Of a stretch of 64,000 nucleotides of DNA, positions 37,971-58,095 are shown piece after piece. The DNA is from an uncultured Clostridia bacterium (GTDB lineage Bacteria; Bacillota; Clostridia; TANB77; CAG-508). The first letter of the stretch is position 1, and every line of letters starts with the position of its first letter. Under the pieces are notes generated by a model. It had not been told where the DNA came from. It made no database searches and saw only the letters and a program-made list of their open reading frames with translations. Where the stretch lies: assembly GCA_934183325.1 (NCBI GenBank), contig CAKPSH010000006.1:1914-65913 (forward strand), in the 5' to 3' direction. Both the position numbers and the translations under genes were made by a program.

Positions 37971-37990
37971 TTGATCCCCAATTTCTCCCC
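37971..37990. repeat. Left att core (direct repeat copy 1)
   Basis: This is ttgatccccaatttctcccc, with the inverted motif attgggg 14 bp upstream. Confidence 0.6.
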
Positions 37991-38081
37991 CATTGTTACT
38001 AAACATATTTTTGTATTTTTATGGTTTTAATTGCAAAATTTTTATTGCAATTGAATTGATATTTTTAAGGAGGAAATTTTT

Positions 38082-38390
38082 ATGGAATTTAATAAAGATA
38101 AAATTCAAGATTTAATGAATGAGTGGATAATTTTTAGAGATGAGGAACTTTGTAAATTAACTAGGGAAGATATGAAACATTCTCTAGATTTTGATACTTT
38201 TTATAATTTAGTTTTAAAAAATGTTTCTAAAAATAGTGAGAAATTTATGATTAAAAATTTGGACAAGTTTTATGAGCAAATTATGGATTTTACTGGTTAT
38301 TATAATGATAAATATTATAAGGCTGGTTTTGGTGATTGCTTGAATTTAGTTATTATGAGTCTTGGAGGTAATGGTATTGAAACTAAATAG
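38082..38390 (+). CDS. Hypothetical protein. It may be one gene disrupted by a frameshift, together with 38362..38652.
   Basis: It is 102 aa with a good RBS (AAGGAGGA). The next ORF overlaps it by 29 nt in another frame. Confidence 0.3.
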   Translation: MEFNKDKIQDLMNEWIIFRDEELCKLTREDMKHSLDFDTFYNLVLKNVSKNSEKFMIKNLDKFYEQIMDFTGYYNDKYYKAGFGDCLNLVIMSLGGNGIETK

Positions 38391-38652
38391 ATATGGTAAA
38401 TTAGCTAAAAGGTATTTGGAAGAATATAAGCCTTTTAAATTTCAACAACTTACTATGGATGGAAGTATTATGGATTATTTATTAGAATTTGAACAACATT
38501 TAAATGGTTATGCTAATTTGATTGAAATTGAACTTAAGCAAAAGTATCCTATGACAGATGATAAAAATAGTTTTATGGAGCAAGTTAAGTATTTGAATAT
38601 GATTCAGGAGATGGTGGATGCGTTTGTGAAAGAGGAGGTTAAATTGGTATAG
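38362..38652 (+). CDS. Hypothetical protein
   Basis: It is 96 aa and is followed by the strong terminator gccgaga-ttaa-ttctcggc at 38655-38685. Confidence 0.3.
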   Translation: MEVMVLKLNRYGKLAKRYLEEYKPFKFQQLTMDGSIMDYLLEFEQHLNGYANLIEIELKQKYPMTDDKNSFMEQVKYLNMIQEMVDAFVKEEVKLV

Positions 38653-38683
38653 AAAAAGCCGAGATTAATTCTCGGCTTTTTCA

Positions 38684-40156
38684 TTATTCATTTTCAATTT
38701 TTACTATATTTTCAAATTCTTCAATGGCTTTTTCTGCAACATATTGCAAATCTTTAGAAATTATCTGTCCATGTACTATTTCATTTCTTTGATCTTTTAT
38801 TTTGCTCAACTTTTTGTTTAATTGATTTTTAGTAATTGGCAATTGTTCATATTTATAAATCTCTGCATATATTTTATATATTGTTGGTGGATTATCCTTT
38901 ATAACATCATCTTTCTTAGCTTGTTCAAAATTTTTCTTACTTATATACTCTTTTAGAAAGTAGTCTTCATATTCTACAATCCCTCTAAAAAATTTTTCTA
39001 TTTGGCTATCTTCTAAATATTTTTTTAGTATCTTTTTTGAAAAATAATAAGTAAAATTTTCTAATGCTATATTTATCATAATAATTGCATTTTTATAATC
39101 CTTAATTAAATAATAATCTTTTGCATAATTAACTGCCAATTCCCATATATTATTTTCACTACTATTTAGTTCTTTATTTATACCTTTAAGTTCATCCTCT
39201 TTTAATCTTAATCTATTATTTCCGCTTGATGACAAACTCATTGAAATACTTAATGGAATATTTTTTATTTCAACATTTCCAGCTAACACTTTGGTTTTAA
39301 ATCTAAATATCATATTTTCATTTATCTCTGGTAACCAATATTTACCTGTTGAAATAATGTATTTCTTTAAAAAATAGTTATATACATTAATAGCTTCATT
39401 TAATGGTCTATAAACTTCATTAATTGTTTTGTTAACTTTAATTAATTCATTTCCATTTATATATTTTTCAATTGTCAATGTTACTATAGAACGATTCACT
39501 ATTCCATACTTATCTTTTTCTGTGTATATATTATCTCCTATAATAAAATTGGATTCTTGAGCTCTTATTGTTTCTGCTTTTATATAACACTTTGTCCCTT
39601 TATAATTAAATCCTATTTCATTTTCTTCATCTAGTATTAAATGATATGGTATTTCTAGTGTAACAATTGTTTTTAAATCTCCTCTTATTGCACTATTATA
39701 TATATTTTTTGTTTCATCTATTTTTTCTTTCAAATTGTTATTCCAACTTATATCATAATTAGAATCAATAAAATTTAATAATGTTTTAGCTTCTTCTAGC
39801 TTTCTAGAATTATTCGAATTTAGATATATCATTATCTTTTCTCTAGCCAACATTTGTTTTGTAGTACATTCGTTTATCATGCTATCTACATTATTGTATT
39901 TAGTCTTTATTTCTAATGACTTTTCAAAAAACTTTTCTGAACTACTATATTCATTAGCTTCAAAATATAAAGCTCCCATTTGTCTATAAATAATATAAAT
40001 ATTACTCATTATGAGTGTTCTACACTCTATTTTTAATTTCTCATATACTTCACATGCTTCTATACCTATTTTAACTCTTTCATCATGTTCTATCCCTTTA
40101 TTTCCGATAATGCTTGATATATATATTATTCTATTTATTATTTCCTGATTATTCAT
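38684..40156 (-). CDS. Large helical-repeat protein with a C-terminal HEPN-like Rx4H motif. It is a putative abortive-infection or RNase effector.
   Basis: 490 aa. The N-terminus has TPR-like repeats. The C-terminal ...KIKDQRNEIVHGQ matches the HEPN R[N]xxxH signature. Confidence 0.4.
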   Translation of the reverse strand: MNNQEIINRIIYISSIIGNKGIEHDERVKIGIEACEVYEKLKIECRTLIMSNIYIIYRQMGALYFEANEYSSSEKFFEKSLEIKTKYNNVDSMINECTTKQMLAREKIMIYLNSNNSRKLEEAKTLLNFIDSNYDISWNNNLKEKIDETKNIYNSAIRGDLKTIVTLEIPYHLILDEENEIGFNYKGTKCYIKAETIRAQESNFIIGDNIYTEKDKYGIVNRSIVTLTIEKYINGNELIKVNKTINEVYRPLNEAINVYNYFLKKYIISTGKYWLPEINENMIFRFKTKVLAGNVEIKNIPLSISMSLSSSGNNRLRLKEDELKGINKELNSSENNIWELAVNYAKDYYLIKDYKNAIIMINIALENFTYYFSKKILKKYLEDSQIEKFFRGIVEYEDYFLKEYISKKNFEQAKKDDVIKDNPPTIYKIYAEIYKYEQLPITKNQLNKKLSKIKDQRNEIVHGQIISKDLQYVAEKAIEEFENIVKIENE

Positions 40157-40301
40157 TTTTCACTTTCTCTCTATATAATTAGTTTAACATATTATATTAC
40201 TTTTTCCTTACAATACAAACACACTAAAGATTTTAGATGTTTTTCTCTGTATTCTTAAAAAACAAATTTTAATAAATAAGTAAATTACATAAAAAGTCCT
40301 G

Positions 40302-40919
40302 TTAAGTTTTTTCTATTAAATAATCATTTAATATTTCTCTCAAAATTGTTTGAACTTTTCTTCTTAATCCATCTACTTCTTCTATGATCTTTTCATTAAA
40401 AATCCCTTGAGAAATTTGTATATCGACACCTACTTCGTGTTCATATTGTCCCTTTTTATTTTTGGAAACAAGTACATTCATATTTTTTTGTTTTAAATCT
40501 TCTTGGATATCTTTGTATTCTTCAAAATCTTTAGATTCAATGCAATAATGAAACACTTCATTTCTAAAATTTAAATATTTTGCATTTATAGTATTGGGCT
40601 TATTCCTCGGATTTTCCAATTCATCTGCTATTTCTAATAATATTCTTTTTACCAATACATTATTTTCCCATTTTGCCATTATTCCTGTAAATCTATCAGA
40701 TCTCTTTATTGTTCCTAAAATTTTAAGAGTTTCTTTCAAGTGTGCTGTTAATAATTTAAAGAAATAAATCTGAGCTTCATAACTTGCATCACCTTTCACT
40801 TTATTAAATAAAGTGGTATTTATTTGTAAATCATTGTATGCTCTTGTTATTAAAAAAATAGCAAAACCTTCATAATCATCTTTATAATATTTTTCTCTAT
40901 CAATCATTATTTCATTCAT
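40302..40919 (-). CDS. HEPN-motif protein, translationally coupled to the QueC-like gene
   Basis: 205 aa with an NFRNEVFHY Rx4H motif. Its start overlaps the stop of the upstream QueC-like gene by 8 nt. Confidence 0.45.
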   Translation of the reverse strand: MNEIMIDREKYYKDDYEGFAIFLITRAYNDLQINTTLFNKVKGDASYEAQIYFFKLLTAHLKETLKILGTIKRSDRFTGIMAKWENNVLVKRILLEIADELENPRNKPNTINAKYLNFRNEVFHYCIESKDFEEYKDIQEDLKQKNMNVLVSKNKKGQYEHEVGVDIQISQGIFNEKIIEEVDGLRRKVQTILREILNDYLIEKT

Positions 40920-42213
40920 CTTTATTCCATCCTTTAATTTGTTTAAAATATTCTTCTAATTCGCAATTGAATTTTTGCAACATTTCATCTATTTTTTCCT
41001 GCCAATCCGCATCTTCATAATATTCTTTTTTTAAATCTAAATAATTATAAATAGTTCCTTCTTTGATATGTTTGTAATATAATTTATAATATTCTAATAG
41101 TGACCTTTTTTCGTTAAATTTATATATAGAAGCTTTTTCATCTTTTTCAATATTTTTTTGCTTAGATATACTTTTTTCATATTTTCTAATGTTTTGAAAA
41201 TCACCTAAGTTTTCTGGCAATAAATACTCACAATCTTCTCTATTATTATATATCATGCCAATTTGCCTTAAAATACAAGCAATGCAAACTCCACAATGAA
41301 AATTTCCTTTTTTCTTATTTCTAAAATGTCTGATTCCTGGATTCTTTGAACATGTCCTTGTAAACTTTTTTATATATTGGTCATATTCTTTTGGAATTAT
41401 TTTAATTATATCTGCTTTAGTCTTATATTTAAATGGATTAATTATTTTTATATTAATTTCTAATTTTTCTAAAATTTTATTTATTAAAAATAAAGTTTTT
41501 TGATTTGTTGTTTTGGTAACTCTTCTACTAAAATTAAATTTAGGATTTAAGGACATTATTCCATTTTCATATATTTTCACTTCATTTATTCTATAATAAT
41601 CTGCATAAATTAAGCTACTTGCAATAAATATTAATGATCTAGTTCTTTCTGTATAGTGTTCTTTCTCTTCCAAACCTATTTTTTTAATCACTACATGTTT
41701 GTTATTGTCATTTTTTATTAAATTCTCATAAATATCATTTGAATTATTTACTTCTATAGGATTAGTTTCAAATGTTACAAATATGGTTTTGTTATTTTTT
41801 TCTACTACACTTCCCGACATAGAATCTAATCCACCTGATAGAACACAAATAGAGTTGTATTCTATCCCATCACAAATACTTTTTTGCTCTCTACCTATTT
41901 CCTTTATCTCTTTTTGGTATTCAAAATTAACATTCCATTTTTCGCCATTTGTCATATAATTTAATAGAATTTCTATATCCTGTTTTACTTCATTAAATTT
42001 TTCTATATTATTTACCGGAATAGTTATATTTAATTTTTGCTTGTTATTTACATCTTCATCTCTAGGAGTGAAAAAATCCGTATAACAAATGTATGATATC
42101 ATATCAAAAAAATCCAATACAATTGTATTAGTATACTCATTAATATCTAATAAATTTTTATCATCATAATGTAATAAATACGGATTTTTATCTTTAAATT
42201 TACTTTTATTCAT
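40912..42213 (-). CDS. QueC-like PP-loop ATP pyrophosphatase (7-cyano-7-deazaguanine synthase-like) with a ~115-aa N-terminal extension
   Basis: 433 aa. It has the SGGLDS PP-loop (CVLSGGLDSMSGS) and a C-terminal CGVCIACILRQ zinc-binding Cys cluster, as in QueC. It overlaps both neighbouring genes. Confidence 0.7.
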   Translation of the reverse strand: MNKSKFKDKNPYLLHYDDKNLLDINEYTNTIVLDFFDMISYICYTDFFTPRDEDVNNKQKLNITIPVNNIEKFNEVKQDIEILLNYMTNGEKWNVNFEYQKEIKEIGREQKSICDGIEYNSICVLSGGLDSMSGSVVEKNNKTIFVTFETNPIEVNNSNDIYENLIKNDNNKHVVIKKIGLEEKEHYTERTRSLIFIASSLIYADYYRINEVKIYENGIMSLNPKFNFSRRVTKTTNQKTLFLINKILEKLEINIKIINPFKYKTKADIIKIIPKEYDQYIKKFTRTCSKNPGIRHFRNKKKGNFHCGVCIACILRQIGMIYNNREDCEYLLPENLGDFQNIRKYEKSISKQKNIEKDEKASIYKFNEKRSLLEYYKLYYKHIKEGTIYNYLDLKKEYYEDADWQEKIDEMLQKFNCELEEYFKQIKGWNKDE

Positions 42214-42889
42214 ATTCTACATCTCCACGCAATTTCTTAATAATATTCGAGAAAGCATTATTTACTTTACTTGCAAAAGTATCTTCTTGTTCAAGTATTT
42301 CATCTGTAAATTCTATTTCTTCAAATTCGACTTGAATTATTGGAACAACTTTTTCTTCCATATAATAATTAATACTATTGGAATACTCTTCACTATCGAA
42401 TTTTTCTAATGAATTAAGTGCATCTTCGTATGTAAATTGCTTATAAATATTAGAAATTATATTTTTTACATATTGTGTGATAAATCTTATAATATTTAGA
42501 GATTTATCAAATATATTATTTTTTTCTAATGTTTCTTTTAAAGATGTTTTTAGCAATTCATTGTTAGATATTCCTAAATAATCACATACTTTCTCTTTGA
42601 GCTCTATATTTGAATATCTAGATAATCCTCCAAGTCCTATTGAAGAAAGTGTGCCTGAATTTACAGCCTTGGAAATTTTAATTATATTTTTTATACTATT
42701 TGTACATTCTTTAGAATATAAATTTTCATTTAATGTTGCTTTTATTTTTGATTGTCCTTTTTTTGGGAAAAGTAATTTTGCTAGCAATTCTCCTATTCCT
42801 GCCCCCTGTTCATTTACTTTTCCATCTTCTATTCCCTCTTTTATGATCTTATCAGATCTTTTATAACTATTTCTTGTTGAAGATCCCAT
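42206..42889 (-). CDS. Hypothetical soluble protein, the partner of the QueC-like enzyme
   Basis: 227 aa with no known motif. It is translationally coupled to the QueC-like gene through an ATGA-type overlap. Confidence 0.4.
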   Translation of the reverse strand: MGSSTRNSYKRSDKIIKEGIEDGKVNEQGAGIGELLAKLLFPKKGQSKIKATLNENLYSKECTNSIKNIIKISKAVNSGTLSSIGLGGLSRYSNIELKEKVCDYLGISNNELLKTSLKETLEKNNIFDKSLNIIRFITQYVKNIISNIYKQFTYEDALNSLEKFDSEEYSNSINYYMEEKVVPIIQVEFEEIEFTDEILEQEDTFASKVNNAFSNIIKKLRGDVEYE

Positions 42890-42907
42890 TTTATCACCTT
42901 TTTCATC

Positions 42908-43726
42908 TTATATATTATTTTTTATTTTTCCTACCTCTATTTTTTCATCTTCTTTTACTTTAAATTCTACTGTTCCTATGTACCCTCCTGGTTCAAAAAT
43001 GTTTGTTGCGGTATATTGTACTTGTACTTCTTGCTTGTACCAATTTGATAGCACATCTTGATAATAAATAATAATACTCATTTCATATGGTATGTTTGAA
43101 CTCTTCAATGAAAAAATTTTTCTTATTACTTTTTCTTCTCCTTTTTCCATTACTTCTATAGAATTTTTTCCTAATAATCTCTCTGTAGTATTATTTATTA
43201 TATCTGATTTAAAATCCACTTTTAAATTTTTAATATTATTCAAGCCAATATTTTTCAAATATATATTTAATTTATATGGTATTCCCTTTTCAATATCAGT
43301 AATTATTAGTTCATCTAATTCCCCTGTTCCACTTTCTACTGTATCAAAAGAATATTTTAAAGTAGGCATATTCTGTAATCTCATATTTTCTTTATCTCTT
43401 TTTATACTATCTTCATTATTCTTTTTTATTTGTACAATAGTCACAATTACTAATACTACAGCTCCAATAATTGCAGAAATAACTCCTGACGAATAACTAG
43501 CTAAAAAGGATAACCAATTTTGAGAATTTACATTAACACTCCACCCTAATAATGTTGGTATATTATATCTATCTAGATAATATAGCGATATAGGAATAAT
43601 ACTAACAAAAAAAAGTAATATATATAAGCTTTTTTCTAAATCGTCCTTACATCTCTTATAATTAATATAACAAAAAACTCCCATTCCTAATAGTATTAAA
43701 ACTACTATTATTACATTTAATATCAT
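42908..43726 (-). CDS. Membrane protein with 3 N-terminal TM helices and a ~170-aa C-terminal soluble domain. It is a candidate effector or sensor.
   Basis: 272 aa. Its hydrophobic segments include VIIVVLILLGMGVFCYI, LYILLFFVSIIPISLYYL and GVISAIIGAVVLVIVTIVQI. Confidence 0.5.
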   Translation of the reverse strand: MILNVIIVVLILLGMGVFCYINYKRCKDDLEKSLYILLFFVSIIPISLYYLDRYNIPTLLGWSVNVNSQNWLSFLASYSSGVISAIIGAVVLVIVTIVQIKKNNEDSIKRDKENMRLQNMPTLKYSFDTVESGTGELDELIITDIEKGIPYKLNIYLKNIGLNNIKNLKVDFKSDIINNTTERLLGKNSIEVMEKGEEKVIRKIFSLKSSNIPYEMSIIIYYQDVLSNWYKQEVQVQYTATNIFEPGGYIGTVEFKVKEDEKIEVGKIKNNI

Positions 43727-43924: not shown

Positions 43925-45040
43925 CTATTTGTTATCTATATATTTTTTCTTTAATATACTAGTAATAACATCTCTAGTTATTCTATTTATTTCTCTAGCA
44001 TTTGTAAATTTATCTGCATTGCTTAATAGTAATTCATTTGTTTTTTCTTCTTTTAAAATAGCTATTTGTTCAGCATCTAAATATTTTAAATACTCCTCAT
44101 AATTTTTTTCTATAATTATCTTACAAGCATTAATATCCAATGCATTAAATTTCACAAAGCCATCAAATCTATTATAAATAGGTAAACCTAGATTATTTTT
44201 TATATCTTCTATATTTTCATAGTTTGAAGTACAAATTATGATTGAATTTTTTAATTCTACTGAATAATTTTTATCAACAAATATGCCTTCATCAAAAAGT
44301 TGATAAAATGCACTAAAAAACACTTTGTTCGCTTTATCAAATTCATCTAATAAAATAACATTTGTTTCTCTATCTAATAAATCTTTTGAAAAGCTACTTT
44401 CGGAATGTTTTGTTCCAAATACATAATTTGCAAAGTCTTCATTTTGAAACATTGAAAATTGTTTTCTAAATAATTCTCCTCCCATTTTTTGAGAAATAAA
44501 CTTAGCTGTTTCAGTTTTTCCTACACCACTTGGTCCATAAAACATTAAAATTAATGGTTTATTATTAAAGAAATCAAATGTTGCAGAATATAGTAAATTT
44601 ATAAGTTCCTCTTTTGCACATTCTTGACCAATTATATTTTTTGAAAATTTCTCATTAATTTCTTTAACACATTTCTCATCAATCTTTTTATATTCATATA
44701 TTTTTTCTAAGCAATTTTCTGTTTTTATCAATCTATTATATACTTGTATTGGTGGATTTTGTAAGTAAACATTTTCAATATCAAATCTATTTAAAAAAGC
44801 TTCAATATTATATAATACCCATTCATTTACCATTGAATATTCATCAGATAAAATTACTAAATTCTCTATTTTTCCTATATCATTAGATGTTTTAGGACTT
44901 ACGCCATCTATCTCTATTGTTTTTTCTTCTTTTTGCACTTTTCTTACTAATTCAGAAAAGCTAAACTGTCCACTTAATTTATATTCTTCTTCAAATCCAT
45001 TTAAAGGTCCCCAAAATATATATTTATTCATCTGTAACAC
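43925..45040 (-). CDS. AAA+ ATPase (ClpA/B-D2-like AAA_2 type)
   Basis: 371 aa with Walker A (FYGPSGVGKTETAKFIS), Walker B (VILLDEFDKA) and sensor-1 (IIICTSNY) motifs. Confidence 0.75.
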   Translation of the reverse strand: MLQMNKYIFWGPLNGFEEEYKLSGQFSFSELVRKVQKEEKTIEIDGVSPKTSNDIGKIENLVILSDEYSMVNEWVLYNIEAFLNRFDIENVYLQNPPIQVYNRLIKTENCLEKIYEYKKIDEKCVKEINEKFSKNIIGQECAKEELINLLYSATFDFFNNKPLILMFYGPSGVGKTETAKFISQKMGGELFRKQFSMFQNEDFANYVFGTKHSESSFSKDLLDRETNVILLDEFDKANKVFFSAFYQLFDEGIFVDKNYSVELKNSIIICTSNYENIEDIKNNLGLPIYNRFDGFVKFNALDINACKIIIEKNYEEYLKYLDAEQIAILKEEKTNELLLSNADKFTNAREINRITRDVITSILKKKYIDNK

Positions 45041-45776
45041 CTGCCAATATTACATCATAAACATCTAATGCACCTTCATCACTCTGTGCTTTATTACCTA
45101 GAATTTCACTTGCAGTTATAGCATTCTCTACCATTTTTATTTCATTTTCTAACTCCATTTTATTCTTTTGTATTTTTCCGACTTTAACAGCATATACATC
45201 TAAACTCATTTTTAAAATATCCGATAATTTATAATTATTTCTAAACGTATTAGTATTAAATCTCAATACATCCATTTGATTTCCATTTTTTGAAATTACT
45301 TCTGTATATCCTTTTACACTATTTAAAACATTATCTAGGTTAGTTAGATTCATCCCCTGATAGTTATTAGCTCCATTAATTAAATCCATATATGGTGTGT
45401 ATAGTCTGTAATATGCCATTGAATTAGGATAAACTTCTATTTTTATATTTTTAAATACTTTTACCTTTCTATCTCTATTTGCTTTTTTAATATAATCAGT
45501 AAGTACCGTATTACTTAAAGTAGTAGTATTGGCTTTACTTAAATCTCCATCCACTTTACCTCCTGCTCCAAAATTCGAATTAAATACTAACTTTTTTATA
45601 ATCGAAGCAACTTTATTTTGAGAATTTTCATCTAGAATATCTCCTAGCTCAGCTGATATTTTTCCTTCAATTGTTCCATTAAATTTTGTTATATTTTCAG
45701 TTACTTTTTTCCCTCCATCTTTTAGAATTATATAATCCAGTGCTGATTCTTCATCAAAATATACTATCTTCTGCAT
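45024..45776 (-). CDS. Hypothetical protein, coupled to the AAA ATPase
   Basis: 250 aa. It overlaps the ATPase start by 17 nt. No motif was recognised. Confidence 0.4.
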   Translation of the reverse strand: MQKIVYFDEESALDYIILKDGGKKVTENITKFNGTIEGKISAELGDILDENSQNKVASIIKKLVFNSNFGAGGKVDGDLSKANTTTLSNTVLTDYIKKANRDRKVKVFKNIKIEVYPNSMAYYRLYTPYMDLINGANNYQGMNLTNLDNVLNSVKGYTEVISKNGNQMDVLRFNTNTFRNNYKLSDILKMSLDVYAVKVGKIQKNKMELENEIKMVENAITASEILGNKAQSDEGALDVYDVILAGVTDE

Positions 45777-45807
45777 CTTTTCACCTCTTCTTTAATATTT
45801 TTATTTT

Positions 45808-47781: not shown

Positions 47782-47791
47782 TATTATTACT

Positions 47792-49427: not shown

Positions 49428-49435
49428 TTTTCCTC

Positions 49436-49810: not shown

Positions 49811-49924
49811 ATATTTGCTCCATTTATTTTTTTATTAATATATCATAATTTCCAAATTTTCTCAATAAAACACACAATATTTTAGCCTATTTTGTCGAAA
49901 TATTTTTTCATTTTTTGAATATCT

Positions 49925-50233
49925 TTACAAACTATTTCCACCTAACTTATTTAGTTTATTCCATATCATATTTAACTCATGTTTAGTATTACTTAAATCA
50001 ACTGTATAAATTGCTCCACTATTAGCCAGATGTGTTAACTGATTTATATTATTTCCAATCTTCCTAAGCTCTGTTATTAAATCCTTAATCCCATCAATTA
50101 CTATTATATCTTTATCCAATCCTTGTTCTATCAAATATTCAGATAAACTTAACTCTGCTTTTTCACTATTTCTAACTAATCGTTCTTTCTCTTTTTTCGT
50201 AACTCTAATTGTTATCCTTTCATCTTTTCTCAT
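49925..50233 (-). CDS. MobC-like ribbon-helix-helix mobilization accessory protein
   Basis: 102 aa with ITIRVTKKEKERL...LSEYL (RHH) and KIGNNINQLTH, which resembles the MobC IGNNLNQIAR motif. Confidence 0.55.
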   Translation of the reverse strand: MRKDERITIRVTKKEKERLVRNSEKAELSLSEYLIEQGLDKDIIVIDGIKDLITELRKIGNNINQLTHLANSGAIYTVDLSNTKHELNMIWNKLNKLGGNSL

Positions 50234-50445
50234 CTCATCATCTCCATTTCATAAAAGGGTTTGGGACATCCCCAACTATCAAGACCCCTTTGTATACACA
50301 AAGGGGAATCTTGCTAAAAACATTTCTCTTATTTTAGTTCTTTTTTACTCTAAAACAACATAAAAAAAAAAGTGACATTTTTATCTGCCACTAATCATTT
50401 CACATCTAAAGTAATTTAGCTTATACTCCAGTTATCTTAACTATT

Positions 50446-51312
50446 TCAGAGTGATTCCCTAATTAGGGAATCGCTCATTCTATGGTCATCATCTTTAATT
50501 TCAATACCACCACACATTTCATATAATCTTGAAATTATTGAATCAACAATACTATAATTTTTATTTATACATAATCTTTCTCTTAATTGATTTCTGTTAT
50601 AATTTGTGGTTATAACAATTGGCAAATAATTATTATATCTATTATTCACTATCAAAAATAATTTTTCTAATACCCATTCTGTTGGCTTTTCTTTTCCTAA
50701 ATCATCAATTATCAAAAGATCCACACTAGAATATAAATTCAAATAATCTTTATCAGAAACTTCTGAATCGCTATATGAATCTCTAATAAAATCTAACAAT
50801 TGTATTAAAGTTCCAAATATTACTGATTTTTCGTTCTTAATAATTTCATTTGCAATGCATGATGCTAAATAAGTTTTACCTACACCATAAGCTCCTGTTA
50901 TAAAAAGTCCTTTATTAGTTGTTCCTTTTATCAATTTATCTACATATTTTTTAACATTTTCATAAGCATTTTTATTCTTATTTGTTATTTTATAATTTTC
51001 AAATGTGCTATTTAATTGACGTTTTCCTAAATTATTATTTTTAAATAATTTGTTTATTTTACTTAAATTGATTTTTCTTATTTTGTCTTTTTCAATGTAT
51101 TCATCATATTGTTGCCAAATCTTACTAGCCTCATTACAGGTACATCTTTCATATGCAGTTGCTATATCTTTATAAACAATATTAACATATAGTGCAGTAT
51201 AATCATTTATATGTAATAACTTTCCACAGAATTTGCACTGCTTGTGCATTTTATTATCAGTATCTAAAACTATGTCAGAAATCAATTGTTTTGAATCCAC
51301 TACCATTTTCAC
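50446..51312 (-). CDS. DnaC/IstB-like replicative helicase loader ATPase (phage type)
   Basis: 288 aa with Walker A (GAYGVGKTYLAS) and Walker B (LLIIDDLG) motifs and N-terminal Cys pairs. Confidence 0.8.
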   Translation of the reverse strand: MKMVVDSKQLISDIVLDTDNKMHKQCKFCGKLLHINDYTALYVNIVYKDIATAYERCTCNEASKIWQQYDEYIEKDKIRKINLSKINKLFKNNNLGKRQLNSTFENYKITNKNKNAYENVKKYVDKLIKGTTNKGLFITGAYGVGKTYLASCIANEIIKNEKSVIFGTLIQLLDFIRDSYSDSEVSDKDYLNLYSSVDLLIIDDLGKEKPTEWVLEKLFLIVNNRYNNYLPIVITTNYNRNQLRERLCINKNYSIVDSIISRLYEMCGGIEIKDDDHRMSDSLIRESL

Positions 51313-51790
51313 CTGCCTTTATATCATCTTCTAATCTATTATTTTCTATTTTATTCTTTTCTACTATATTCTCTTCTGCTACGTTACTTGACGTTTGTGT
51401 AACGTTACTTTCTTCTTTTTTCTTATCTCTAAATCTTTTTTGTCTTGCTCTATTTTGCTCTAAAATTTTCTCATATTTATCAATACTTTGATACTTATAC
51501 CAGTTTTTAATTATATATGTATTTTCCTGATATATTAGCATCTCTAAATGGATTAATTTGTTCAATATATTTTCCATTTTTGCATCCGTTTTGTGAATGA
51601 TTGTTGCAAGTTCATGCACTGTCATCGGATTATTTTCTGAAATCATTAACTTTCCTTCTTGCATACATTGTCCTGCTATTGTTAATAATTGAATCCATAC
51701 TCTAAAAAATGTGTCCCCATCACGTTCTTTGAGTAATATTTTGATTTTTGGATTTGCAAATATATCTGTAAACACTTTAATCCATTGCAT
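51275..51790 (-). CDS. Phage replisome organizer (N-terminal domain family)
   Basis: 171 aa. The N-terminal MQWIKVFTDIFANPKIKILL... is typical of phage_rep_org_N. It overlaps the dnaC-like gene. Confidence 0.6.
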   Translation of the reverse strand: MQWIKVFTDIFANPKIKILLKERDGDTFFRVWIQLLTIAGQCMQEGKLMISENNPMTVHELATIIHKTDAKMENILNKLIHLEMLIYQENTYIIKNWYKYQSIDKYEKILEQNRARQKRFRDKKKEESNVTQTSSNVAEENIVEKNKIENNRLEDDIKAGENGSGFKTIDF

Positions 51791-51802
51791 GTTTTCCCTC
51801 CT

Positions 51803-52030
51803 TTACTTTTTTAATGATTCTTGTTCTTTATTATTTAAGTATTCATCTAGTGCTTGTACTCTAAATAATACTCTTCCACCAACTCTTGCACATGGTATTT
51901 GTTTTCTTCTTACTAATTGATTTACTAACCAATATGATATTCCTAAATACTCTGCTGTTTCTTTCATTGTTAATGTTGTACGTTCTACTTTTGGTAAATT
52001 TTCCATATTATCACCTCCAATTTTTAACAC
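51803..52030 (-). CDS. xis: Excisionase/AlpA-type helix-turn-helix DNA-binding protein
   Basis: 75 aa. LTMKETAEYLGISYWLVNQLVRRKQIPCARVGGRVLF is the HTH_17/excisionase signature. Confidence 0.65.
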   Translation of the reverse strand: MLKIGGDNMENLPKVERTTLTMKETAEYLGISYWLVNQLVRRKQIPCARVGGRVLFRVQALDEYLNNKEQESLKK

Positions 52031-52197
52031 TTTTTAGCAACTTTTAGCAATTATTAGCACTTTTCTTGATTTTTAGTGCTTTGCCTTGTAAAATGTAACT
52101 AGCTAATTACTAATTGTTATTTTAATTGTTTAATTTTGAATTAAAAACCTGACAGGTAATAATTAGAAAAATTTTTTTAATTGTAGGGGGGATTATT

Positions 52198-53244
52198 ATG
52201 ATGGGTGATTTAAAAATTGCTTTTGATTTTATAAACTCTAAAGAATATGTGTCAAAATTTACAGCAGATGAATTTACTGATATAGATAAACTACCTGAAA
52301 ATTTAAAAGATAAAAAATTTTATATATTTAAAAATTGCGAACCACACTGTCAAGCAATAGGAACATTTTTACTTGATTTTATGAATACAGATTTTGATGA
52401 TTTTGAAGATTTTAGTTTATTACTAGATAAATATCTTTTTATTCCTTTATTGTTTTTCTATAATCCGAATATATTAAATGATTGTTTATATGGTAAAAAT
52501 GTAATATCTAAAAAAGAATATCTGAAAGAAAATATCTTGATATTATCTGAAGAAGAATTTATGTATTATTGGAAATTATTTTATGAAGAATACAACTGGG
52601 ATTTATCAACTACACAACTCAAATTTGAAAATATATTTGAAAATCAATATTATAAAAAATTCTTAGAGGTAACTAATGTCATGGATGATAATTATGACTT
52701 ATTTGAAGAATTTTCTAGGAAAGAAGATCATTTTTCCGCAATAAAAGATATTGCTCCAGAATTTACAACAATTGAAATGAGCTATGATGTAAAAGACTTT
52801 TGTGATAACACAAATATATATAATTACTTCTCTGCAAAAAATCCAATTGATATTGCTTATGTTTCTGCTAGAGAACTTTTGAACAACAAAAAAAGTTTTA
52901 GATTAGTACGTTGCGGTATTTGCAACTATTACTTTATACCTAAAACTTCTCATACAACTTTATATTGTGATGAAATCTATCAAGATGGGAAAACTTGTAA
53001 AGAATATGCTAAATTAATATCTACCACAAAAACTTATGAATCTGATCCTCTTTGTAAAAAATATAGGAATAGATACAAAAATTTGCATAAGCAAGCCTCT
53101 TTAAGCAATAATCCTAAGGTAAGTCTTTTATGTGAGGAGTATAAATTAAAAGGTCCTAAAATGCTTGAAAAATACCAACTTGGTAAAATCACTCCAGAAG
53201 AATTCGAAAATTGGATTGATGGGATGAAAATAAGGAAAAGCTGA
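52198..53244 (+). CDS. Hypothetical protein with a C-terminal Cys-rich (zinc-ribbon-like) region
   Basis: 348 aa with RCGICNYYF...YCDEIYQDGKTCKEY. The terminator agctgatattt-aacc-aaatatcagct lies at 53246-53275. Confidence 0.4.
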   Translation: MMGDLKIAFDFINSKEYVSKFTADEFTDIDKLPENLKDKKFYIFKNCEPHCQAIGTFLLDFMNTDFDDFEDFSLLLDKYLFIPLLFFYNPNILNDCLYGKNVISKKEYLKENILILSEEEFMYYWKLFYEEYNWDLSTTQLKFENIFENQYYKKFLEVTNVMDDNYDLFEEFSRKEDHFSAIKDIAPEFTTIEMSYDVKDFCDNTNIYNYFSAKNPIDIAYVSARELLNNKKSFRLVRCGICNYYFIPKTSHTTLYCDEIYQDGKTCKEYAKLISTTKTYESDPLCKKYRNRYKNLHKQASLSNNPKVSLLCEEYKLKGPKMLEKYQLGKITPEEFENWIDGMKIRKS

Positions 53245-53320: not shown

Positions 53321-54604
53321 TTACTTCGATGGAAATCCAATATTAGGTCTCATTCCACTTTGTATAAAATTGATTTTTCTAAAATTATAAAGTAGTTCAT
53401 TTAAATATACCAAGATAGTAATGTTATCATAACATAATAAAGCTAAGTCGCAAAGATACAATTCCACAACGTTTTCTTGACCTCTAAATTTATCGTAAAA
53501 AGTAATTTTTTGTGAACTAACATCAAAATCGTATGTATAATGTGCAATTGCATTGCGTATATTTCTATCTATTTTAACACATTTACTAAAAGGTTCTTCA
53601 AAAATCAAAGATTCTAATCTCTTCGATTTTACTAATTTATTATATTCCTCAAAGTTTGAAACATTAGCTCCATCAGAAAAACTATCATATGTTCCTCTTA
53701 AATAAATATTATTTAATCCTATTGCAATAGTTATCATATCTAATATTAATTCATAACTATCTTTATAAAAATTAATCATATCATCAAAACTTATCGTAGC
53801 AATTCCATAAATTTCTTTATCGAATTTTTCACGTAAATCTCCCAAGGAAATCATAACCATCGGAATATATTTTTCAAAGTTTTCTATCCATCTTGAATAA
53901 ATTTTTACAATTCTTTTTAAATTAAAATCAATTTCTTGATTTGTTTTTAAAAAATCTATAAATTTATATACTTCTAAAATAATTTCTTTATTCATCACTT
54001 TTTTTGATATTTCAATAAATTCATTAAGGGTATTAGGATCAAGTATTTTACTAAAGCCTATTACATTTGATTGGTGTAATGCCATTGCAACATCTAATTT
54101 ATTTTTTACAGTAAAATTAGGCGAAAGTTTAAGTATAGGCTCACGTATTAATTCAATTTTATCATTAAAATATAAATCATAAAGTGGTCTTAGTACATTC
54201 CAATTGTTTATTTTAAAAAATATAAATTCTTCTATATGTTTAACTAAATTCATATAATCTTGTCCTGATTCGAACAAATTTACAGTATCCATAAATGGCC
54301 CTGCCCCTTTAGAATACATTTGTTCAAAAGAAATATACTTGCTAATTTTTTTATGTGGTAATTCTACCGAAAAATCCGCATAATAATCTATATTATCTAG
54401 ACATTCTTCTATTTCTGTTGCATTATTAATTTCAAAAGAATTTTCAGTGGCAATTTTTCTAATTCCATTAATATTAACTTTACAATTGGGGCAGAAAAAA
54501 CTAAATGGGATATCAAATTCACCCATTTGAAATCGAAGAAGTATATTAGTTTTACAAAAATTACATTTTATATATATTCTATTTATCATAATTTCCCCCA
54601 TCAC
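53321..54604 (-). CDS. N-terminal zinc-ribbon plus C-terminal HEPN-motif protein (Abi-like)
   Basis: 427 aa with CNFC...CPNC at the N-terminus and a DRNIRNAIAHYTYD Rx4H motif near the C-terminus. Confidence 0.4.
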   Translation of the reverse strand: MMGEIMINRIYIKCNFCKTNILLRFQMGEFDIPFSFFCPNCKVNINGIRKIATENSFEINNATEIEECLDNIDYYADFSVELPHKKISKYISFEQMYSKGAGPFMDTVNLFESGQDYMNLVKHIEEFIFFKINNWNVLRPLYDLYFNDKIELIREPILKLSPNFTVKNKLDVAMALHQSNVIGFSKILDPNTLNEFIEISKKVMNKEIILEVYKFIDFLKTNQEIDFNLKRIVKIYSRWIENFEKYIPMVMISLGDLREKFDKEIYGIATISFDDMINFYKDSYELILDMITIAIGLNNIYLRGTYDSFSDGANVSNFEEYNKLVKSKRLESLIFEEPFSKCVKIDRNIRNAIAHYTYDFDVSSQKITFYDKFRGQENVVELYLCDLALLCYDNITILVYLNELLYNFRKINFIQSGMRPNIGFPSK

Positions 54605-54873
54605 ATAAATTAATTTTTATTTTATATTCATTCTCTGATAATAACTATATTCCATATACAAACAGTTTGCGTTCTTGTCAAAGAATTTAAAATTTAAAAA
54701 TTAGTATCTAATAATTTTTCATAAATTTCTATTATTACAATACTTCTATTTAATATACTATTTATTAATATTAGCTTATTATTTAATTTATCAACACCTC
54801 TATATTAGTTTAATATAGAAATTTTATACTTTTCCGATATTTCATCAAGTTTTTAAATAAGTTCCATTTTATT

Positions 54874-55545
54874 TTAATCATCACTTTTTCCAAATTCTTT
54901 TCGTTCATTATTATTAATTGCATCATTCAAATCTTTATATAAAGAACTTTTAGGCATAACATTTAGTTCGTCAAATTTAAAAAGAGTTCTTCCCTCTATA
55001 TAATTTGCTAATCTATTATTAGAATATGCGATGGATCTTATTTCTTCAATCACTCCATCTATACCATCTTTTATTTCAATTTCTTTTTTGTACGCGATAC
55101 TTCTTTTATATGAAATTAGCTTATTATCATTTTCTTGTACATATTTAACATTGATTTCTATATTTGGAGACATTTCACTTTTTAAATACATAACTACTCC
55201 TTGTGTTTCTTCTGATGGATATAACATAAATTCATTCTTGAAAATATCATCTAATTCAAAATTTGTTTGTTCATTATTATTCATACTTAAAAAATCTATT
55301 TTTATATTAGTTGCTCCGCTTTGACCATTATTTTTTATGTATAATACTAAAAATCCATTTTTTTCATATAACTTAAATGTTAATATTGGCTTTAAACTAT
55401 TTATATATCTTCGATTAGCCTTTACGTTAGAAACGATAGTTATTATTACCGCAATAATTGCTACAACTAATGATAAAATTGAAATTATATTTGATGTTGT
55501 GTTATCCTTTAGAAGACATATTATTTCTTGTAATTCATTTTCCAT
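54874..55545 (-). CDS. Hypothetical single-pass membrane protein
   Basis: 223 aa with an N-terminal TM segment, IISILSLVVAIIAVIITIV. Confidence 0.4.
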   Translation of the reverse strand: MENELQEIICLLKDNTTSNIISILSLVVAIIAVIITIVSNVKANRRYINSLKPILTFKLYEKNGFLVLYIKNNGQSGATNIKIDFLSMNNNEQTNFELDDIFKNEFMLYPSEETQGVVMYLKSEMSPNIEINVKYVQENDNKLISYKRSIAYKKEIEIKDGIDGVIEEIRSIAYSNNRLANYIEGRTLFKFDELNVMPKSSLYKDLNDAINNNERKEFGKSDD

Positions 55546-55679: not shown

Positions 55680-55708
55680 GTGTTTATACGTAGTATAATG
55701 TATTACAG
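55680..55708 (+). promoter_or_regulatory. Sigma-A-type promoter with a palindromic operator in the spacer, upstream of hicA
   Basis: TTGACA, a 17-bp spacer, then TATAAT. The spacer contains the inverted repeat TACGTgtttatACGTA. Confidence 0.5.
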
Positions 55709-55732
55709 AAAGGAGGATATTAAATGCATTGT

Positions 55733-55901
55733 AAAAAGCTAATCAAGTTGCTTCAGCAAAATGGTTGGCGAAAGATTTCACAAAACGGTTCTCATTTAAA
55801 AATGAGAAAACGGAAATCAAACTGAAATTATTCCCGTACATAGCGGAGATATTCCAATAGGGACAGCTGAAGCAATTCTAAAAAGAACAGGGCTAAAATA
55901 A
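55733..55901 (+). pseudogene. hicA: hicA-family toxin gene interrupted by a +1 frameshift in an A4 run
   Basis: Frame 0 gives MHCKKLIKLLQQNGWRKISQNGSHLKMRKRKSN*. The +1 frame continues ENGNQTEIIPVHSGDIPIGTAEAILKRTGLK*. Removing one A from agaaaacgg restores a 55-aa HicA-like ORF (KLIKLLQQNGW...GSH...IPVH...). Confidence 0.6.
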
Positions 55902-56031
55902 TTAGCCCTCCCTATTCAACTATATAATATTTCAGTTAAATGAGGGTAAAACTTTAATTTTATATTTTTTACTAGGGTTTGTTTGCTGTGCATTTATCTT
56001 CCTTTCTATCATATAAATTGGAGGTATAAAA

Positions 56032-56424
56032 ATGAAAAATCAATTAACTGTCTTTCCTGCCATATTTACTTTTGATGGTAAATATTATAATGTTGATTTT
56101 ATCGATTTAAAAGGATGTTCAACTTTTGGAAGCAGTATACAAGTTGCATATTCTATGGCTCAGGATGCTATGGGCTTATATTTGGATAATATGACTAATT
56201 TTCCAAATCCCTCTTTAGATTTTTCTAATATCCCTTTAAAGGAAAATCAATTTGTTTCATTTATAAGTATTGACATGGATGACTACAGAAAAAAATTCAA
56301 TAAAAAATCGATAAAAAAGACTTTGACCATCCCTGAATGGTTAAATTATCTTGCCGAAAAAAACGATATTAATTTTTCTCAAGTTTTGCAGGAAGCTTTA
56401 AAAGAAAAATTAAATATTGACTAA
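56032..56424 (+). CDS. hicB: HicB-family antitoxin (RNase H-like N-domain plus C-terminal RHH)
   Basis: 130 aa with the C-terminal TLTIPEWLNYLAEKNDINFSQVLQEALKEKL CopG/RHH motif. It lies directly downstream of hicA. Confidence 0.75.
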   Translation: MKNQLTVFPAIFTFDGKYYNVDFIDLKGCSTFGSSIQVAYSMAQDAMGLYLDNMTNFPNPSLDFSNIPLKENQFVSFISIDMDDYRKKFNKKSIKKTLTIPEWLNYLAEKNDINFSQVLQEALKEKLNID

Positions 56425-56742
56425 ATTTTTTAAAAATAATATAATATAAAAAATGCATTTAATATCCAAAAAAAGAGATTAAAAAGTAGATAGTTTTATA
56501 ACTATCTATTTTTTATTTCTTATTTTTCATAAAAAGATTTCTTCATTTATTCTTTTAATTTTATATTTTATAACGTATACTGTACAAAAATCACACTATA
56601 TTAACATTTTTTCTTTCCCCCTACACCCCAAAACTTTTCCTCCATAACCCCCTGTCGGGTTTTGTTTTCTTCCACAAAAATGTTACAATAAAAACATAGT
56701 AATACAAACAATTACTAAAAACAACAGAAAGGAGGCAAAAAA

Positions 56743-57942
56743 GTGACAGGTAGTATTGAAAAGCGAGGAAAAAACAGTTACAGGCTAGTAGTATTCAAAG
56801 GATATGATCTAGACGGCAAACCAATAAGGCATCAAAAAACAATACACTGCAAGAAAAAATCAGAAGCACAGATAGAACTTGCAAAATTTCTAACAGAAGT
56901 AGAAAGTGGACTAATAGTAGATGGAAACATCCCAACATTTGCACAATATGTGGAAATATGGACAAAGGATTATGCATTAAAAGAACTAGCACCGTCAACT
57001 TACTACAGATACAAACGCATGCTAGAAACAAGGATAACTCCATATTTTGGACATTATAAAATAAATAAAATCAAACCAACAGACATAATGAGATTTTATG
57101 ATTTGCTTGAAGAAGATACTCAAATTGTTAGAAGAAAAAATAATAATGGAAAGAAAACAAGAAAGCCATTATCTCAAAAGACAATATTAGAGCACCATCG
57201 TTTGCTATCAGCAATGCTTCATAAAGCAGTATATTGGCAACTTATTGTAAGCAATCCTGCTGAACGTGTTCAACCACCGAAAACATCTAAGCCGTTAAGA
57301 CGTCATTATGATGAAGAACAAACTAAAATTCTTGTTGATAATTTGCAAAAGTTAAAAGGCAATCAAATTAAATATCGTACTGCAATTTTACTTGATATTT
57401 TTACTGGAGCAAGGCTTGGAGAACTTGTTGGACTTGAATGGAACGATATTGATTTAAAAAATGGTATTATCAATATTAATAAGTCTAGTCAATATCTTTC
57501 TGAAAAAGGAGTTTTTACAAAATCTCCTAAAACAGAAAGTTCAATAAGAGATGTTGCAATACCTGATTTTATCGTTTCTTTACTTGAGGAATATAAGTTA
57601 TGGTATGATGAACAAAAATCAACTGTAGGCGATTTCTGGCACGAATCTAATAGGCTATTTGTTCAAGATGATGGTAAACCTATTCATCCATCTACAATTA
57701 GCAAATGGTTTGAACAGTTTGTTAAAAAGATTGGATTGCCTGTAATTAATTTTCATGGTTTAAGACATACAAATGCAACTCTTCTTATTTCTCAGCAAGT
57801 TGATGTTGCAACAGTATCTGCTAGACTTGGTCATGCACAAATTACTACTACATACAATTTCTATGTTCACCCACTAAAATCTCATGATAGGACTGCTGGA
57901 AATGTATTAGAGAATTTGTTAATTTCAAGCAAGGCAAATTAG
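56743..57942 (+). CDS. int: Tyrosine recombinase / phage-type integrase
   Basis: 399 aa with a GTG start behind an AAAGGAGG RBS. It has R (TGARLGEL), HGLRHTNATLL and the C-terminal catalytic Y (TTTYNFYVH). It sits next to the right att repeat. Confidence 0.9.
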   Translation: MTGSIEKRGKNSYRLVVFKGYDLDGKPIRHQKTIHCKKKSEAQIELAKFLTEVESGLIVDGNIPTFAQYVEIWTKDYALKELAPSTYYRYKRMLETRITPYFGHYKINKIKPTDIMRFYDLLEEDTQIVRRKNNNGKKTRKPLSQKTILEHHRLLSAMLHKAVYWQLIVSNPAERVQPPKTSKPLRRHYDEEQTKILVDNLQKLKGNQIKYRTAILLDIFTGARLGELVGLEWNDIDLKNGIININKSSQYLSEKGVFTKSPKTESSIRDVAIPDFIVSLLEEYKLWYDEQKSTVGDFWHESNRLFVQDDGKPIHPSTISKWFEQFVKKIGLPVINFHGLRHTNATLLISQQVDVATVSARLGHAQITTTYNFYVHPLKSHDRTAGNVLENLLISSKAN

Positions 57943-58075
57943 AAATTCAATATTATCTAAAAATCTTTTTTGTGACTCTCATATTTATATTTTTTTGATT
58001 TACTTTGTTGCAAAAATGACTTTAAGAATTTTTATGAAATGAGATTTTCTTAGAGGTTCTATGTCAATTGGGAAG

Positions 58076-58095
58076 TTGATCCCCAATTTCTCCCC
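58076..58095. repeat. Right att core (direct repeat copy 2)
   Basis: This is ttgatccccaatttctcccc, embedded in the near-palindrome tatgtcaattggg...ccccaatttgacata. Confidence 0.6.

Follow-up and report, generated by a model that had tools for sequence, protein, structure and literature searches.

A 20.4-kb defence-carrying integrative element with a probable tRNA-fMet-derived core in an uncultured gut Clostridia bacterium

Where does the mobile island in this genome begin and end, and what kind of element is it? The locus lies in a stretch of 64,000 nucleotides from an uncultured Clostridia bacterium (GenBank assembly GCA_934183325.1, contig CAKPSH010000006.1, positions 1,914–65,913), which was analysed as a whole and is called the window below. 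The original prediction placed an island of ~20.1 kb between two perfect 20-bp direct repeats (37971–58095), took the repeats for the cores of the attachment sites, and saw in the gene content a satellite or mobilizable element inserted into or next to a response regulator gene. Comparison with related loci indicates that this reading got the general nature of the element right but misplaced its ends and misjudged the 20-bp repeat. The island itself stands, and the family to which it belongs moves between species. With a probability of roughly three in four, we propose that positions 37838–58236 represent one member of an integrative-element family that is widespread in uncultured, low-GC gut Clostridia and whose recombination core derives from tRNA-fMet.

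The 20-mer TTGATCCCCAATTTCTCCCC is present in exactly two copies in the window (37971–37990 and 58076–58095), both in the same orientation, with no additional site at up to three mismatches and 0.01 expected by chance. The right copy starts 134 bp after the integrase stop codon at 57942, as had been noted. The inverted ATTGGGG/CCCCAAT arms described around each copy hold in part, the right-hand upstream arm reading ATTGGGA. To place the ends, we used more than 170 related loci, comprising at least 119 metagenome stretches that contain the 20-mer, mostly from human gut samples, and 58 genome loci from an integrase scan of one genome per species. Once oriented, the metagenome stretches sort into two classes that correspond to the left and right copies of the window. 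In blastn alignments, homology to the window begins at 37837/37838 in the left-type loci and stops at ~58236 in the right-type loci. Because the homology spans 37838–58236, the element reaches ~133 bp beyond the left 20-mer and ~141 bp beyond the right one; these outer segments (37838–37970 and 58096–58236) are conserved across more than 100 copies in differing chromosomal contexts.

The terminal repeat of the resulting 20,399-bp element is a 15-bp imperfect direct repeat with a single mismatch, CCTTCGGGTTATGAG at the left end and CCTTAGGGTTATGAG at the right end, and the two cores share an identical 7-bp overlap, CTCATAA. Elsewhere in the 64-kb window, no further copy of the 15-bp core exists at up to two mismatches (0 expected by chance). 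Printed junctions from the family display a constant core with differing flanks beyond it: on the left, a variable flank is followed by CCTTCGGGTTATGAG and GGTTACATAAC, and on the right, ATTTCAAACTC(G/A) leads into CCTTAG(A/G)GTTATGAG and then a variable flank. In every relative examined, the 20-mer lies inside the element in both arms, and the 15-bp core is found 118 bp (left) and 126 bp (right) further outward. Recurrence of the 20-mer at many other genomic sites had been named beforehand as fatal to the island. The repeat does recur, in the metagenome stretches counted above, yet the loci read, with three exceptions, turn out to be arms of the same element family. The corrected map has a practical side, as PCR assays for excision or searches for an empty site built on the 20-mer would target the wrong place. 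Exact-protein look-ups of both flanking genes for an empty left-hand site returned only contigs that carry the island or that break at the arm.

The core itself points to the origin of the integration site. Its reverse complement, CTCATAACCCGAAGG, corresponds to the anticodon loop (anticodon CAT) and the 3′ strand of the anticodon stem of a tRNA-Met. Crossover in the anticodon loop is a known sublocation class among tRNA-targeting islands. In one relative (L139), the core occupies positions 32–46 of a tRNA-fMet, and the attL core of the window is identical to this tRNA-Met(CAT) sequence. The L139 tRNA has a C1–A72 mismatch and three G–C pairs closing the anticodon stem, features that mark a bacterial initiator tRNA. 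In relatives whose integrase is 70–89% identical to that of the window, an entire tRNA 3′ half, TGGTTGCGGGGGTAAGACTCGAACTTACGA-CCTTCGGGTTATGAG, forms the right end; at 12–13 such junctions, the flank continues with CCCGACGAGCTGCCAACTGCTCCACCCCGCG, the tRNA 5′ half, and an intact tRNA-Met(CAT) is rebuilt. ARAGORN places this intact gene ~220–290 bp past the integrase gene in 11 loci. Across the family, several left flanks can still be recognised as tRNA 3′ halves that have decayed. The window belongs to a subfamily with integrases 97–98% identical, in which the tRNA copy has decayed to AGTTTGAAAT, keeping ~23 of the first 27 bases of the 3′ half, and none of the right flanks in this subfamily is a tRNA 5′ half. 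With this decay, the element would no longer repair a tRNA, and ARAGORN identifies no tRNA gene in the 64-kb window, the regenerated tRNA at the integrase-proximal junction being absent.

Islands that target tRNA genes, as catalogued in Islander, split the gene on integration, restore it with a piece of their own and leave a displaced fragment that marks the far end (PMC4383910). The likeness to the window element extends to the integrase gene at one end, here 279 bp from the attR core, and to the flanking direct repeat, which is a piece of the target tRNA gene. The replacement piece and the displaced fragment marking the ends are seen in the relatives with 70–89% identical integrases. Unlike in those islands, the replacement tRNA half of the window subfamily is decayed, the repeat has shrunk to 15 bp, and no tRNA gene stands at either end.

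If the 20-mers are not cores, what are they? Each is made of two tandem TCCCCAATTT-type motifs, and exact copies of this 10-mer are confined to the two arms within the window. The left arm contains an inverted copy with one mismatch (37949–37958), and the right 20-mer overlaps a further copy (58091–58100). Across loci with integrase identities of 70–98%, the doubled motif TCCCCAAnTTnTCCCC starts 144–150 bp before the core in nearly all loci that have both, and its surroundings diverge across the same loci. Variants read TTCATCCCCAATTTCTCCCC, TTCTTCCCCAACTTTTCCCC and ACTCCCCAAAATCTCCCC; in three loci the doubled motif lies 110 bp before the core, and some loci have no match to the search pattern. 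At tandem junctions, a single core links the two arms, and a 20-mer lies on either side of it. In the attP sites of lambda and Tn916, arm-type integrase sites are repeated motifs on both sides of the core. Judged by position and repetition, the 20-mers are probably docking sites of the arm type for the integrase. The resemblance to lambda Int and Tn916 Int would cover both a core flanked at ~120 bp by repeated short motifs and an integrase with an extra N-terminal segment.

The distribution of the family speaks for recent movement. All but a few of the 58 integrase loci are from metagenome-assembled genomes (MAGs) of uncultured gut Clostridia, among them 'Clostridium sp.' CAG:245, CAG:465 and CAG:389, UMGS bins, bins of the Hadza and other cohorts, and one circular MAG of 1.57 Mb (OZ007016.1). 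Near-identical copies, with integrases 97–98% identical, occur in MAGs of many species, and the element ends are 95–97% identical where the adjoining gene of the choloylglycine hydrolase (CBAH) family is 75–81% identical to that of the window. Elements also stack in tandem. Locus L065 contains an entire 8.1-kb element that has the same ends and is directly adjoined by the left end of a second element, and at the junctions in L062, L038 and L141, a right end is joined to a left end via a single core. No record contains the integrase of the window as an exact protein.

Two side observations concern the neighbourhood and the communities. The left end of a family element lies beside, or 1–5 kb from, a CBAH homologue in several related species (L040, L072, L084, L091 and L123; L017, L048, L068, L117 and L125), and the genes in between are ordinary chromosomal ones (peptide deformylase, CYTH, Sir2, ASCH, NUDIX), which suggests that elements have long been landing in the CBAH vicinity and that this landing region is conserved. 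The assembly of sample ERZ27287334 stops at the seventh base of the left 20-mer (L006 1–7, equal to window 37971–37977) and again inside the integrase gene (the end of L001, equal to window 57102). These breaks suggest co-existing element variants in that community. The strain of the window is also present in samples ERZ27287460, ERR7738234/5 and ERZ28615212.

The right junction has a history of its own. The original prediction connected the island to a truncated response regulator, and the truncation is relevant because its breakpoint coincides with the true right end, 58236; what fails is the notion of a simple insertion, since the remainder of the gene is absent across the island and ~3.4 kb is gone. 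The truncated product retains the receiver domain but just the opening residues of the domain that binds DNA. Its missing C-terminus was sought in the left flank and is not encoded there. An uninterrupted allele from a conspecific strain (P0001), 99% identical over the 136 residues queried, runs through the breakpoint. Four conspecific loci (L185, L186, L187 and L190) are 98.9–99.3% identical to the right flank of the window, with the match ending at 58229. Past the breakpoint, the conspecific order is the regulator C-terminus, an HlyD fragment, genes of 238, 155 and 348 amino acids (aa), and then a family core and an element with integrase; L185 is without the 238-aa gene. The ~3.4 kb missing in the window corresponds to this conspecific sequence. 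At the undisturbed regulator site, TTGAAT-CTAAAAA-CTACAAAT, the heptamer CTAAAAA matches the overlap CTCATAA at five of seven positions. Two of the conspecific loci, L186 (1–1600) and L187 (1–360), have flanks 99.2% identical and carry different family members, with integrases ~74% identical in DNA, that end at the same chromosomal base. These members have the arm motif TTCTTCCCCAACTTTTCCCC, one with an intact tRNA 3′ half and one with a decayed copy.

The simplest reading of these alignments is that the right junction of the window arose by integrase-mediated recombination between the element core and the look-alike site in the regulator gene, with the loss of ~3.4 kb. The order of events could be a deletion from attR, or a secondary-site insertion that was then resolved against a resident element. 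The same process at look-alike sites may lie behind the diverse right flanks of the family, as against its constant CCTTCGGG left junctions. The regulator locus (L185 2389–3383; L186 4042–5036; proteins P0077, P0081, P0088, P0102, P0103 and P0110) was already decaying: the conspecific allele has 213 aa, its C-terminus is altered, and it is followed not by a histidine kinase gene but by the 110-aa HlyD fragment. Regulator alleles of 137 and 148 aa in other species were considered as independent insertions and set aside, as their C-terminal residues look frameshifted instead.

How the element travels between cells is a separate matter. A NikA-like/MobC relaxosome accessory protein is encoded, and the nearest plasmid homologue, on pCF007-E of Clostridium estertheticum (44% identity), has a relaxase gene directly after it. 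In the relatives of the window element, mobC is followed by cargo and not by a relaxase gene. No relaxase family was detected among the 25 island open reading frames (ORFs) scanned, or downstream of mobC in L007, L014, L083, L138 and L139, and neither the island nor the relatives inspected contain mating-channel, terminase, capsid or other packaging genes by Pfam and PHROGs. Directly upstream of mobC lies a conserved cis block that is a candidate origin of transfer (oriT), kept in 18 distinct family sequences, including elements without mobC. It folds into two hairpins. The first is formed by CCCCTTTGT-GTAT-ACAAAGGGG at 50285–50306 and the second by TTGGGG..TCCCAA, and the hairpin region conserves AATCTTGCT. 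In the first hairpin, 93.7% of the cells of the alignment are paired and three pairs are changed on both sides; none of the shuffled controls reaches the observed pairing or covariation score, and slid controls give 13–60% pairing. On the opposite strand, the sequence past the hairpin reads AATCTTGC, which resembles the ATCCTG/C nick motif of IncP-type transfer origins, a lead only. We tentatively favour mobilisation by a helper conjugative element acting on this candidate oriT, a route that has been put forward for oriT islands without a relaxase. Such an element would supply both relaxase and channel, because no relaxase is encoded and the oriT-like hairpin sits beside mobC.

The backbone of the element comprises the integrase (int), a probable zinc-finger protein with a DUF6076 domain, the excisionase-type protein (xis), the replisome organiser, the DnaC-like loader, the conserved hairpin, the MobC/NikA-like protein and TnpV (Table 1). 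The segments common with the relatives are 37838–38660 (arm, 102-aa protein and TnpV), 49831–52188 (mobC, hairpin, dnaC, replisome organiser and xis), part of the DUF6076 gene, and 56649–58236 (int and arm). The gene list of the original prediction is confirmed by family matches for int, HicB, the HTH_17 excisionase-type protein, Phage_rep_org_N, the DnaC/IstB-like ATPase and the NikA-like/MobC protein, and its description of an integrative island that is not a prophage, with an int/xis/replication/MobC backbone and defence cargo, is supported as well. TnpV has been postulated to act in excision of Tn4451 (PMC3158075). Iterons lie inside the replisome-organiser gene (3.5 copies of a 15-bp unit at 51329–51381, and a 22-bp repeat at 51411–51452), and they mark a probable replication origin. 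Replication after excision is plausible, because the organiser gene holds the 15-bp iterons and is followed by a DnaC-like helicase loader.

The DUF6076 protein has a confidently predicted fold (predicted local distance difference test score, pLDDT, 87.6). DUF1470 belongs to the CGNR group of zinc-finger regulators, and the DUF6076 protein is a probable zinc-finger regulator. A regulatory role is a sensible guess because the gene faces the xis–rep operon across a region with repeats; a literature search for DUF6076 returned nothing. The AT-rich palindromes at 52103–52182 and the 17-bp repeats at 52018–52064 in this region are candidate operator sites.

Table 1 Coordinates of the features of the element and of the truncated gene at its right end (positions in the window)
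Feature	Position	Strand	Evidence or remark
attL core CCTTCGGGTTATGAG	37838–37852	+	True left end; homology of 60+ copies starts here, left flanks differ
Predicted P′ arm of attP with left 20-mer	37853–37990	+	Kept in all left-type loci of the family
Conserved 102-aa left-end protein	38082–38390	+	No family match; relatives, among them the 8.1-kb element of L065 and its tandem neighbour, have homologues at their left end
TnpV-family protein	38362–38652	+	PF14198, E = 5.6e-11
490-aa cargo protein	38684–40156	-	Weak TPR match; function unassigned
Four-gene cluster: 272-aa membrane protein, 227-aa protein (weak SPFH/Band-7), 433-aa QueC-like protein, 205-aa protein	40302–43726	-	PADLOC QatC, E = 4.5e-38
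Complete Dodola system: DolB 43925–45040, DolA 45024–45776	43925–45776	-	DolB 4.2e-126, DolA 1.6e-58; DUF6414, AAA_2
SLFN-group-3/DUF2075 helicase, MazG-like protein, 102-aa ORF, DUF3427/NOV_C protein (PD-T4-1-like), NUDIX hydrolase	45808–49810	-	Family matches
NikA-like/MobC relaxosome accessory protein, ribbon-helix-helix	49925–50233	-	PF21983 4.7e-21; PF05713 2.6e-12
Conserved cis block, candidate oriT, directly upstream of mobC	50255–50315	-	AGCAAGATT, two hairpins, ACCCTT
DnaC/DnaI-like helicase loader	50446–51312	-	PF01695 4e-16; phrog_50 2.3e-63
Phage-type replisome organiser	51275–51790	-	PF09681 6.2e-24; TIGR01714
Excisionase-type HTH_17 protein (xis)	51803–52030	-	PF12728 8.8e-12; TIGR01764 6.5e-12
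Divergent control region between xis and the DUF6076 gene	52018–52197	.	17-bp direct repeats 52018–52034 and 52048–52064; palindromes
DUF6076 protein	52198–53244	+	Also in the minimal 8.1-kb relative; four invariant cysteines
Slot next to int: 427-aa protein (N-terminal CxxC pair, R-x4-H), 223-aa membrane protein	53321–55545	-	phrog_13366 2.3e-18
Frameshifted hicA 55724–55901 and hicB 56032–56424	55724–56424	+	Stitched HicA PF07927 2.6e-17; HicB PF15919 4.8e-06
Tyrosine integrase, 399 aa, intact ORF	56743–57942	+	PF00589 8.7e-29; PF14659 2.6e-18; phrog_1 9e-78
Predicted P arm of attP with right 20-mer and decayed tRNA-fMet 3′ half adjoining the core	57943–58221	+	Motif spacing, residual tRNA similarity
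attR core CCTTAGGGTTATGAG	58222–58236	+	True right end; homology of 50+ copies ends here
Flanking OmpR-family response regulator, truncated after codon 135	58213–58644	-	Last 8 codons and stop from the element

The cargo occupies two variable slots, one downstream of mobC and a second, small one between the DUF6076 gene and int. That much of it is defence-like, as first proposed, is borne out by a complete Dodola system, a QatC-like protein, an SLFN/DUF2075 helicase and a PD-T4-1-like NOV_C protein. The Dodola assignment follows from adjacent genes for DolA (DUF6414) and DolB (a ClpB-like ATPase). PADLOC detects none of QatA, QatB and QatD among the neighbours of the QatC-like protein, which leaves the QatABCD set incomplete, and the four-gene cluster may be an undescribed QatC-containing defence variant. 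In the slot next to int, the 427-aa protein and the 223-aa membrane protein have no Pfam match; the earlier label of the former as an Abi-like HEPN protein was not borne out, with an R-x4-H motif and a PHROG of unknown function as the only leads. The frameshift reported in hicA is confirmed, as its two frames stitched together give a full-length HicA_toxin match. Across the family, the slot cargo is mostly anti-phage genes. Past mobC, the relatives carry type I restriction-modification (L007 and L139), a type II/III-like methyltransferase (L014), methyltransferases (L083), or an SLFN helicase and MazG (L141), and L065, which is without mobC, carries PDC-M36A-like and HNH proteins.

The SLFN-group-3/DUF2075 helicase recurs in the window (45808–48106, minus strand), L141 (3958–6261), L088 and L113, which suggests a portable cargo module; its neighbour is a MazG-like gene in the window, in L141 and, it seems, in L088. 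Three further observations concern the rest of the window. Its G+C content is ~25%, and the composition of the island is unremarkable against the remainder. To the left of the element lies a type I-B CRISPR-Cas system (25808–36451) with cas6-cas8b-cas7-cas5-cas3-cas4-cas1-cas2 on the minus strand and an array of 35 repeats of ATTTACATTCTAATATATTTATATTAATAC, whose spacers match neither the island nor any fetched relative. Rfam returns nothing within the island; its sole match is a tetrahydrofolate (THF) riboswitch outside (61889–61983, minus strand; 60.2 bits against a gathering score of 36), just upstream of a 194-aa ORF (61288–61872, minus strand) that heads a run of energy-coupling factor (ECF) transporter genes (an ECF substrate-binding component, an ABC ATPase and CbiQ).

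Several other explanations have to be weighed. The best placed, though unlikely, is a phage satellite of the phage-inducible chromosomal island (PICI) type, induced by a helper phage and packaged in its capsids. Such satellites share with the window element an integrase, an excisionase-type helix-turn-helix (HTH) protein acting as excision regulator, and a phage-type replication module whose initiator has an adjacent or internal origin, here probably the internal iterons. They share the absence of virion genes as well, and defence cargo is common on satellites (PMC10085698). The differences lie in what packaging and control would need: Pfam and PHROGs identify no terS, capsid-remodelling, capsid or packaging gene, there is no cI-like or otherwise recognisable master repressor, and the element is 20.4 kb long. 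The family is also absent from the 2.9 million contigs of IMG/VR, searched by 20-mer and by integrase, and megablast of the backbone against the 50,697 phage records of INPHARED and the plasmids of PLSDB gave no match. Moreover, the MobC/NikA-type protein and the oriT-like hairpin point to conjugation rather than packaging. The same scans, which detect no virion, lysis or terminase genes, set the element apart from a prophage.

We consider it improbable that the island is an immobile remnant, once mobile, fixed here after the flanking deletion and persisting as a defence island. The frameshifted hicA, the decayed tRNA copy with no intact target flanking it, and the secondary nature of the right junction would all fit a remnant. 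They have to be set against intact ORFs for int, xis, the replication protein, dnaC and mobC, two cores with an identical 7-bp overlap, two perfect arm sites, and integrase copies at 97–98% identity in MAGs of many species, which imply recent movement.

A transposon like Tn916 with low target specificity, in which the 15-bp sequences are fixed termini and both flanks random targets, is very improbable. It would account for the extreme diversity of the right flanks (76 distinct across the family, some in coding DNA), in which a target consensus was sought and none emerged, and the closest solved structures to the integrase are 3nkh and the Int protein of 6emy/6emz. Against it, tandem junctions hold a single core and not two, attL always reads CGGG and attR mostly AGAG, as expected if attL keeps the arm of the target, the 12–13 exact tRNA-fMet reconstitutions are left without a reason, and so are the left flanks that are recognisable as decayed tRNA 3′ halves. 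The weakest alternative, with the 20-mers as attL and attR cores of an island at 37971–58095, is hardly credible: the two exact direct copies are far above chance and each lies near short inverted motifs, but the segments outside them are conserved between chromosomal contexts, flanks diverge only beyond the 15-bp core, tandem junctions have one core with a 20-mer on each side, and relatives rebuild the tRNA at the 15-bp core and not at the 20-mer.

A number of points also weigh against the proposed element with a tRNA-fMet-derived core. The left junctions always retain CCTTCGGG, even where the flank resembles ordinary chromosome; decay of displaced tRNA halves may explain this, and the left flank of the window itself has no recognisable tRNA remnant. 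The window copy showed neither a circular form nor an empty attB or a restored site, and the hicA pseudogene attests to some decay. The extra N-terminal segment of the integrase matches the arm-binding domain Arm-DNA-bind_4 (PF14657) weakly (E = 0.013; 15.6 bits against a cut-off of 22.3), a difference from lambda and Tn916. As to transfer, PLSDB plasmids contain nothing similar to the oriT-like region, and no helper element came to light. Instead of an oriT, the hairpin could also be a terminator or serve replication or packaging.

On balance, the following course of events is proposed for the tRNA-fMet-derived element. The tyrosine integrase would exchange strands within the 7-bp anticodon-loop sequence TTATGAG, and its N-terminal domain would bind the doubled TCCCCAATTT motifs ~120 bp on either side of the core in the circle, building the recombination complex. 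The HTH_17 protein, possibly with TnpV, would steer excision. The predicted circle junction joins TTTCAAACTCGCCTTAGGGTTATGAG to GGTTACATAACATATTTAATG, and the predicted scar joins AATTAATTTGTGCCTTCGGGTTATGAG to ATTCAATTTCAAATCTCC. The excised circle would replicate from the iterons inside the replisome-organiser gene, and transfer between cells would most likely depend on a helper, with relaxase and channel coming from a conjugative element. In the window, an element of a subfamily that no longer repairs the tRNA would sit on a leftover core beside the CBAH gene, and its right junction would be the product of a later recombination between the element core and the look-alike site in the regulator gene that removed ~3.4 kb.

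The element has parallels among described systems, each with a difference. A classical integrative mobilizable element has its own integration and excision module and no channel genes, as here, and its own relaxase, which is missing here. The clostridial mobilisable transposons Tn4451 and Tn6104–6106 (PMC3158075) are likewise small cargo elements with a TnpV homologue and a mobilisation-related gene; they use a large serine recombinase (TnpX), 2-bp targets and a Mob relaxase, whereas the window element has a tyrosine integrase and a tRNA-derived core, with the TnpV homologue but neither TnpX nor a relaxase. The iOriT islands (bioRxiv 10.64898/2026.01.13.699239) also have their own integration and excision genes, no relaxase, no mating channel, and defence genes near a candidate oriT. 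Here the oriT is a predicted one to which no helper has been matched, and the element has two components more, a replication module of phage type and an accessory protein of the relaxosome. The closest general description is that of a tRNA-seeded integrase island with putative arm-type sites. Three features add interest to it: decay of the tRNA copy, stacking in tandem, and a module of MobC and hairpin that comes without a relaxase.

Tycheposons of Prochlorococcus (bioRxiv 10.1101/2020.12.28.424599) are cargo-carrying tyrosine-recombinase elements at tRNA genes of a small-genome host as well; their excision and integration remodel larger genomic islands, and some resemble phage parasites. The likeness is one of description: tycheposons belong to another phylum and another integrase lineage, and the cargo here is mostly for defence rather than nutrient acquisition and comes with a MobC/oriT-like module. 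It is conceivable, though doubtful, that the family is a clostridial counterpart of tycheposons: self-replicating, relaxase-less, tRNA-fMet-seeded and tandem-stacking, a main vehicle of defence-gene turnover in reduced-genome, uncultured gut Clostridia, with one subfamily that lands on leftover cores without tRNA repair and an integrase that carves deletions at look-alike sites. If this were true, such deletions would contribute to gene loss in the host.

We found no earlier description of the large element family defined here. It resides in common, uncultured Clostridia of the human gut and carries anti-phage systems, among them restriction-modification and Dodola, from one species to another. 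How small genomes are remodelled by integrase elements is illustrated concretely by three of its traits: a tRNA copy that has decayed, elements stacked in tandem, and a deletion precise to the junction.

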